From IMG/VR virus record IMGVR_UViG_2529293239_000011: a stretch of 13,319 bases of DNA; one strand, written 5' to 3'. The notes under the pieces were generated by a model that was not told where the DNA came from, searched no databases, and worked only from the letters and a program-made list of their open reading frames with translations. Shown piece by piece: positions 8,498 to 8,797 of the stretch. Each line of letters begins with the position of its first letter. Within the stretch, counting starts at the first letter, position 1. This stretch comes from a virus (Duplodnaviria; Heunggongvirae; Uroviricota; Caudoviricetes). A program made the position numbers and the translations under genes.

Positions 8498-8797
8498 ATG
8501 AAAAAAAGAAATTTTAGCGCAGAGTTTAAACGCGAATCCGCTCAACTGGTTGTTGACCAGAAATACACGGTGGCAGATGCCGCCAAAGCTATGGATGTTG
8601 GCCTTTCCACAATGACAAGATGGGTCAAACAACTGCGTGATGAGCGTCAGGGCAAAACACCAAAAGCCTCTCCGATAACACCAGAACAAATCGAAATACG
8701 TAAGCTGAGGAAAAAGCTACAACGCATTGAATGGAGAATGAATATTAAAAAGGCTACCGCGCTCTTGATGTCAGACTCCCTGAACAGTTCTCGATAA
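8498..8797 (+). CDS. IS911 OrfA variant, 99 aa, with an altered leucine-zipper segment (IEWRMNIKK instead of [10 protein letters not shown])
   Basis: Compared with the fragment copy at 3192..3494, three A-run deletions (GAAATGG to GAATGG, TGAAATA to TGAATA, TTAAAAAAGG to TTAAAAAGG) restore the frame after 7 codons and shorten the slippery heptamer to A5G. Confidence 0.8.

Follow-up and report, generated by a model that had tools for sequence, protein, structure and literature searches.

Has the full-length IS911 copy in a Shigella prophage remnant decayed at its programmed frameshift site, or do the three A's that it lacks belong to an error in one assembly? IS911, a member of the IS3 family, was first described from Shigella dysenteriae. 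The DNA that we analyzed (13,319 nt, referred to as the window) matches contig AKMW01000036.1 (assembly GCA_000267985.1, a 2012 draft of Shigella flexneri CCH060) without a difference over 11,924 bp. CCH060 is a serotype 6 archetype strain, and was resequenced to completion in 2023 with Illumina HiSeq and PacBio RS II (CP099865) (PMC10732043). It had been predicted from the sequence of the window that one A is missing from each of three A-runs in this IS911 copy, that the loss should lower production of the OrfAB transposase and might immobilize the element, and, as a last alternative, that it could be a sequencing artefact. The comparative evidence favors that last alternative, since the triple deletion is absent from nine copies at the same locus, and we consider it probable that the 2012 CCH060 draft lacks the three A's through a base-calling or consensus error, inside a genuine, old resident IS911 copy.

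An IS911 Copy in a Prophage tRNA Gene

The locus is a prophage remnant adjoining a metal ABC-transporter permease gene (12462-13319, minus strand). It starts with an integrase gene, an IS600 split by a 1310-bp IS629-like element (called "IS3 family" in the records), and a fragment of IS911; these are followed by queH and hok/sok, a second IS600 and a Q-like gene, and then by tRNA-Met, tRNA-Arg and tRNA-Thr with a fourth tRNA gene cut by IS911, an IS110-family fragment, and an IS66-family element (ISSfl3-like). The tRNA genes form a prophage cluster at 8129-8425, in which Met(CAT), Arg(TCT) and Thr(TGT) precede the interrupted gene. At the other end of the window, a 629-bp 5' part of IS600 (1247-1875), the IS629-like element (1876-3185) and the IS911 fragment (3186-3566) form nested IS wreckage. 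This three-way arrangement is also found in CP026811 and its IS600/IS629 junction in CDC 796-83, while the three elements are arranged differently in Sb227. A 14-bp tandem repeat (AGGCTATCTGCTTC) at 4395-4436, within an Rfam sok match (4386-4589), has three units in the window, two in Sb227 and CP026811, and one in S. sonnei and at other loci, and represents a small VNTR in the region of the sok antisense RNA.

The features of the two IS911 copies are as follows:

8364..8425, plus strand: truncated fourth tRNA gene, the IS911 insertion target (Rfam partial tRNA match at 8374-8428, model positions 10-63 of 71)
8426..9671, plus strand: full-length IS911 copy, 1246 bp (1249 bp canonical in the compared relatives), by alignment with the pWR501 and E. 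coli copies
8498..8797, plus strand: orfA, 99 codons and a stop, by translation; HTH_Tnp_1 at residues 1-74 (Pfam PF01527, E = 2.8e-14)
8749..9663, plus strand: reading frame of orfB (-1 with respect to orfA), containing the rve/DDE catalytic domain (Pfam PF00665, E = 1.2e-31)
9171, plus strand: synonymous T to C, private to the draft (T in every other IS911 copy examined)
3186..3566, minus strand: 381-bp 5' fragment of IS911 (IRL and orfA) with A-runs of 3, 3 and 6, by alignment; cut off by the right end of the IS629-like element

The full copy is an IS911 of the IS3 family, as seen from its near-identity to known copies (11 differences over ~1.25 kb from the pWR501 copy, and 4 from the CP055124 orthologue), its TG...CA ends (TGAAGTGGCAC... 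from 8426, and ...GACCACTTCA ending at 9671), and the combination of an orfA HTH with an orfB rve/DDE domain in the -1 frame. Matching records are annotated as "IS3-like element IS911 family transposase". With reference-type IS911 (pWR501, S. boydii Sb227) it shares the length of 1.25 kb, the TG...CA inverted repeats, the HTH and leucine zipper of orfA, the rve/DDE domain of orfB in the -1 frame, and both the upstream GGAG element and the predicted downstream three-way junction. It differs from the reference type in its A-runs (2/2/5 rather than 3/3/6), its shift heptamer (U_AAA_AAG rather than A_AAA_AAG), its 99-aa OrfA, an AUU codon that lies outside the orfB frame, and the absence of 3-bp direct repeats around the copy.

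No 3-bp target duplication surrounds the full copy, whose left flank reads ...GATTCC; its right flank, GTTGCT..., belongs to an IS110-family transposase gene (PF02371) of which the 3' part is present. Together, the missing duplication and the gene fragment imply an IS-mediated deletion or recombination, which is old, as Sb227 has the same arrangement.

The listed orfB ORF (8824-9663) encodes 279 aa. Three substitutions set it apart from the copies of pWR501 and E. coli, at 8841, 9182 and 9600 (His to Gln, Tyr to Cys in GDVTCIW, and Leu to Phe, respectively), which are common to several copies in the compared S. boydii and S. flexneri 6 genomes; the Asp beside the Tyr to Cys change is presumably the first of the DDE triad. 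An identical 279-aa OrfB is present in S. boydii Sb227 and 3594-74 and is found at more than one locus, so this OrfB sub-lineage has spread. We considered the three substitutions as locus-specific markers and rejected them, as both Sb227 and 3594-74 carry the identical OrfB at other loci; orthology was therefore defined by the truncated-tRNA/IRL junction (probe AAGCTGATGATGCGGGTTCGATTCCTGAAGTGGCACACTG) or by fully collinear flanks, and the loci were fetched via neighboring genes.

Three Single-Base Gaps near the Shift Site

We aligned window positions 8420-8830 (plus strand) with 3160-3570 (minus strand) and with the copies of pWR501 and E. coli 7/2. These alignments show three 1-nt gaps in the full copy and no more, one in each of three consecutive A-runs, and all of them fall within 22 nt, in agreement with the predicted span of 30 bp. 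The fragment has the canonical runs, as had been claimed, but extends over 3186-3566 rather than the 3192..3494 given for it; besides the gaps, the two copies differ at 8581 (C/T, silent) and 8786 (A/T, Ser/Cys). The positions concerned in the full copy are:

8730..8731, plus strand: deletion 1, A3 to A2 (GAAATGG to GAATGG), from the alignments
8741..8742, plus strand: deletion 2, A3 to A2 (TGAAATA to TGAATA), from the alignments
8747..8751, plus strand: deletion 3, slippery run A6 to A5 (TTAAAAAAGG to TTAAAAAGG), from the alignments
8746..8752, plus strand: shift site T_AAA_AAG (canonical A_AAA_AAG), with 0-frame codons ATT(8744), AAA(8747) and AAG(8750)
8733..8736, plus strand: GGAG, Shine-Dalgarno-like upstream stimulator, now 13 nt before the AAG codon and formerly 15 nt (counted on the alignment)
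8759..8815, plus strand: downstream stimulatory structure, with an outer stem GCGCUCU/AGAGCGC around two hairpins, from an MFE fold

The draft copy thus reads GAATGG...GAATATTAAAAAGG, and its canonical counterpart GAAATGG...GAAATATTAAAAAAGG. Past the truncated-tRNA junction, the string CATTGAAATGGAGAATGAAATATTAAAAAAGG is diagnostic of canonical runs and CATTGAATGGAGAATGAATATTAAAAAGG of the triple-deleted sequence.

Translation bears out that the orfA frame is kept, with a product of 99 rather than 100 aa. The seven altered OrfA residues of the original prediction are not what we find: MENEIL becomes WRMNI, which amounts to four substitutions and the loss of Leu84, with Ile83 retained, and shortens the altered C-terminal leucine-zipper region from 11 residues to 10. 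The change of the slippery heptamer to U-AAA-AAG, in turn, follows from the codon table at 8746-8752. The A_AAA_AAG heptamer of the fragment and the orthologues is missing from the full copy, which retains the A-site tetramer A_AAG and fails the heptamer rule of an identical XXX (definition: PMC4066793); in the -1 frame, the site reads TAA(8746-48) AAA GGC. The GGAG element has been named as a stimulator of IS911 (PMC4066793), and a three-way junction has been described downstream of the IS911 shift site (PMC5009743). The corresponding fold predicted in the window (z = -1.0, weak evidence alone) would be untouched by the deletions. The deletions transfer the AUU start codon of OrfB from the orfB frame to the 0 frame.

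Taken singly or in pairs, the deletions have different consequences. Deletion 1 alone shifts orfA to the +1 frame, where a stop falls within the A-run; deletions 1 and 2 would join orfA to orfB in frame, an outcome in agreement with the fusion of the frames by a 1-bp insertion that is stated in PMC2909936; and adding deletion 3 returns the sequence to the orfA frame.

Most Orthologous Copies Are Canonical

Among nine orthologous copies from other genomes, eight have the canonical 3/3/6 runs (Sb227, CP026807, CP162059, CP162048, CP055124, CP160647, CP026814, and CP026811) and one (PSST01000003.1) has deletion 1 only. Two further assemblies, one with the identical 279-aa OrfB and one with the right-hand junction, are canonical too. 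A comparison with reference IS911, which the original prediction had proposed, gives the same picture, as reference-type copies do not carry the variant sequence.

Two of these genomes allow a close comparison. Over 4255 bp, the window and CP055124 are distinguished solely by the three gaps and the T/C at 9171. CP026811, a serotype 6 strain (Table S1, PMC10732043), is collinear with the window over 13,157 columns and has the same IS architecture throughout, down to a rare Ile variant in the OrfB of the IS629-like element. The three missing A's are the sole 1-nt gaps in this alignment, and the other differences are substitutions at 9171 and 9239 and one 14-bp repeat unit (hok/sok) that is extra in the window. 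Extended to 19.7 kb, the comparison of the CCH060 draft with CP026811 gives 6 substitutions and no other 1-nt indel. Within the full IS911 copy, 9171 is the only difference private to the draft besides the three deletions.

The window contains 674 homopolymer runs of at least 3 nt, 425 of which are A/T. Relative to CP026811, the differing runs are the three adjacent ones within 22 nt, and ~670 others are unchanged, among them the neighboring A5 (8711-15) and the A3 runs at 8694 and 8803. Three adjacent runs changed against ~670 unchanged ones point to one event rather than three independent ones.

Alleles of the Same A-Runs Elsewhere

The 99-aa OrfA (EIQ13345.1) and the 388-aa frameshift-joined product (WP_434963846.1) are recorded from AKMW01000036.1 only. 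A 34-mer spanning the three sites had no match in GTDB representative genomes, JGI metagenome contigs, or IMG/VR. Likewise, 5426 complete E. coli genomes and PLSDB gave nothing above 97.6% identity to an 81-mer or 96.6% to a 57-mer, and the best matches there are alleles with deletion 3 only. Deletion 2 had no other occurrence in these searches, and the product predicted for deletion 2 alone ("...RIEMENEY") is absent from a collection of 15 billion proteins.

Deletion 3 alone (A5G) is, by contrast with the triple deletion, very common: the resulting 90-aa OrfA ("...EILKRLPRS") is found on at least 1000 contigs, and 728 E. coli records match the A5G 83-mer at 99% or higher, vs. 1261 for the canonical 84-mer. 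This allele (the E. coli K-12 IS911B "InsN" type, and the copy beside nanY and a BCCT transporter gene in many E. coli) has likewise lost one A from the slippery A6 and is likewise a fixed chromosomal copy. However, it is backed by hundreds of independent complete genomes, which the triple deletion is not, and its single deletion terminates orfA at "...EILKRLPRS*" (90 aa), so that a -1 slip cannot join orfA to orfB. An A5G copy in E. coli 7/2 (NZ_CP023820.1) is described by RefSeq as a gene of 1168 nt with a "programmed frameshift"; since 1168 + 1 does not divide by 3, its frames could be joined only through a +1 or -2 shift and not through a -1 slip.

With deletion 1 alone, OrfA has 83 aa ("...RIEWRMKY"), a product present on 22 contigs from several laboratories, often with several copies per genome (CP026823, CP026842, PSSQ01, PSST01); it is also found in S. 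dysenteriae 225-75 and Shigella sp. FC1544. This allele of S. dysenteriae, S. boydii and related assemblies shows the same GAAATGG to GAATGG change, once at the orthologous locus (PSST01000003.1), but its frame is not restored and OrfA ends ("...RIEWRMKY*") at a TAA in the slippery run. At the otsA locus, CP026842 has deletions 1 and 3 together, while only deletion 1 is present in its orthologues in CP026823 and PSSQ01. Several of the deletion-1 copies also lack one C of the C-run at window position 9600. A different 99-aa OrfA variant, GHK90442.1 on a 4.85-Mb E. coli contig, runs through nine residues in the orfB frame and then returns, and is apparently a second compensated double frameshift at the IS911 overlap.

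Sequencing Error or Mutation

The case for an error rests on these observations: the change is confined to one assembly, its parts are adjacent, all of them are single-base homopolymer losses, and same-locus copies elsewhere are canonical. Single-base homopolymer loss is the classic type of consensus error. The losses share with the homopolymer errors of 454-era and early long-read data that they remove single bases, cluster in a repeat, are private to one assembly, and are absent from relatives; they differ from such errors in that two of the runs concerned measure just 3 nt, and far longer ones close by are read correctly. A single low-quality stretch in the interior of the repeat (few reads, or the tail of one read) would be a likely cause, and within 22 nt it would have under-called each A-run of at least 3 nt by one base. 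The deletions lie 303-326 bp inside a multicopy 1.25-kb element, where reads anchored in the unique flanks would thin out; the technical cause itself is inferred. The biology beneath is ordinary, an IS3-family element in a truncated prophage tRNA gene of an IS-riddled Shigella island.

Several findings run counter to this explanation. Elsewhere the draft is clean: 9.4 kb compared with CDC 796-83 contain no further 1-nt indel, and longer runs are called correctly, including the A7s at the IS600 shift sites, the A7 at the IS911 start codon, and the A5 14 nt upstream; with a general homopolymer error this low, a special local cause must be assumed. Further, the substitution at 9171 in the same copy is not an error of the homopolymer type, and deletions 1 and 3 exist as natural alleles, together in CP026842. 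We rejected two narrower versions of an error. A chimeric consensus of other CCH060 copies does not fit, as deletion 2 and the C at 9171 are in no copy examined. One bad read as the source of all four private changes is not needed either, as the background divergence (6 substitutions in 19.7 kb) can explain the SNP at 9171.

A real lesion private to CCH060, by whatever route it arose, is in our estimate possible but clearly the less probable of the two outcomes. Nearly all of that weight falls on a tentative scenario in which the deletions arose within CCH060 through one complex event, such as an error-prone repair tract, or through a rapid series of slippage. Deletions of one base from homopolymers do accumulate in IS911, as the 22 contigs with deletion 1 and the at least 1000 contigs (728 E. 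coli records) with deletion 3 illustrate, and the otsA locus of CP026842 combines two of them. The accuracy of the rest of the draft consensus speaks for the scenario as well, and the private SNP at 9171, together with the private 14-bp repeat expansion, indicates some real private change in this lineage. Yet at 6 substitutions per 19.7 kb relative to CP026811, three independent real deletions within 22 nt are extremely unlikely, deletion 2 is without precedent elsewhere, selection for regaining the frame is not to be expected in a resident copy, and no second assembly supports the lesion.

Could the lesion instead have been copied from elsewhere in the genome? Gene conversion from another CCH060 IS911 copy that was already triple-deleted, for example via 1, 1+3, and 1+2+3, would be in line with the intermediates (2,3,6) and (2,3,5) in other Shigella genomes, where they are often multicopy, which suggests spread or homogenization, and with substitutions that the IS copies of this lineage have in common across loci. 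We nevertheless regard it as very unlikely: no donor is known, triple-deleted products are on one contig only, the other full copy seen in the CCH060 draft is canonical, and none of the deletion-1 copies has a C at 9171. We give equally little credence to a stepwise rescue, in which deletion 1, known elsewhere as a dead allele, would move orfA to the +1 frame, deletion 2 would create a constitutive in-frame OrfAB (388 aa), and deletion 3 would set the frames apart again. If true, it would have left a rewritten zipper and a shift site with A_AAG only, as a case of natural compensatory frameshift evolution inside a recoding signal.

Predicted Consequences

Immobilization of the element is not established as biology, the change being a singleton of one 2012 draft with a canonical sequence in eight of the nine orthologues; what stands is the statement about the sequence itself. 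Reduced OrfAB output is a reasonable expectation if the sequence is real, but the original prediction gave too little weight to the loss of Leu84, the spacing of GGAG, and the frame of the AUU codon. A 7-residue repeat of Leu/Ile at OrfA positions 70, 77, 84 and 91 is visible in the sequence, and the leucine zipper is reported to be essential for multimerization and activity (cited in PMC2909936). A real change would shorten the zipper by one residue, Leu84 at a d-position, and would thereby break the register in both OrfA and OrfAB; this damage to the zipper would probably be more harmful than the change of the shift site. At the shift site, re-pairing of the P-site tRNA would have to take place on UAA, which would probably weaken frameshifting, the GGAG spacing would be 2 nt shorter, and the AUU start of OrfB would be lost.

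In E. coli, tetramers stay near background unless a strong stimulator is present; with the strong IS3 pseudoknot, frameshifting on A_AAG reaches up to 5.6%, and the stimulators of IS911 are only moderate (PMC4066793). It is on this ground, and because the same change removes a zipper leucine and is a singleton with no sign of spread, that we give practically no credence to a functional attenuated design, tuned to low transposase output by an A_AAG tetramer with a non-cognate P-site shift, even though some IS3-family elements use such a shift and the IS629-like element in the window has N_AAA_AAG in an ALIL pseudoknot match.

A real lesion would leave the copy non-autonomous, with intact ends that other IS911 copies could still use in trans. 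It would be one more decayed IS copy in an IS-filled Shigella genome, a known kind of event with little biological weight. As a consensus error, the patch matters mainly for the databases, since the 388-aa RefSeq "IS3 family transposase" (WP_434963846.1) and the 99-aa GenBank OrfA (EIQ13345.1) probably exist only through it. Further, annotation pipelines label IS911 with a "programmed frameshift" even where the slippery run is broken, such as A5G in hundreds of E. coli genomes.

Shift Sites of the Neighboring IS3-Family Elements

Indels in A-runs recur at the shift sites of IS3-family elements, so these recoding sites are weak points for mutation and sequencing alike, and run lengths need to be checked before the copy number or activity of IS911 or IS600 is inferred. 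The slippery run of IS600 is an A7 (TTAAAAAAAGC) in both copies of the window (1556-1562 and 6418-6424), and an A6 in the orthologous first copy of Sb227 and in the orthologous second copy of CP162059; single-A length variation at the shift site therefore recurs in IS600 too. In the IS629-like element (1876-3185), the overlap of orfA and orfB reads TGG AAA AAG TGA (2245-2256), with an N_AAA_AAG heptamer at 2247-2253, directly followed by the 0-frame stop. This site lies inside a match to the ALIL pseudoknot (RF01497, 2211-2327, 116 bits), and its A5G configuration is the same as that of the IS911 variant.
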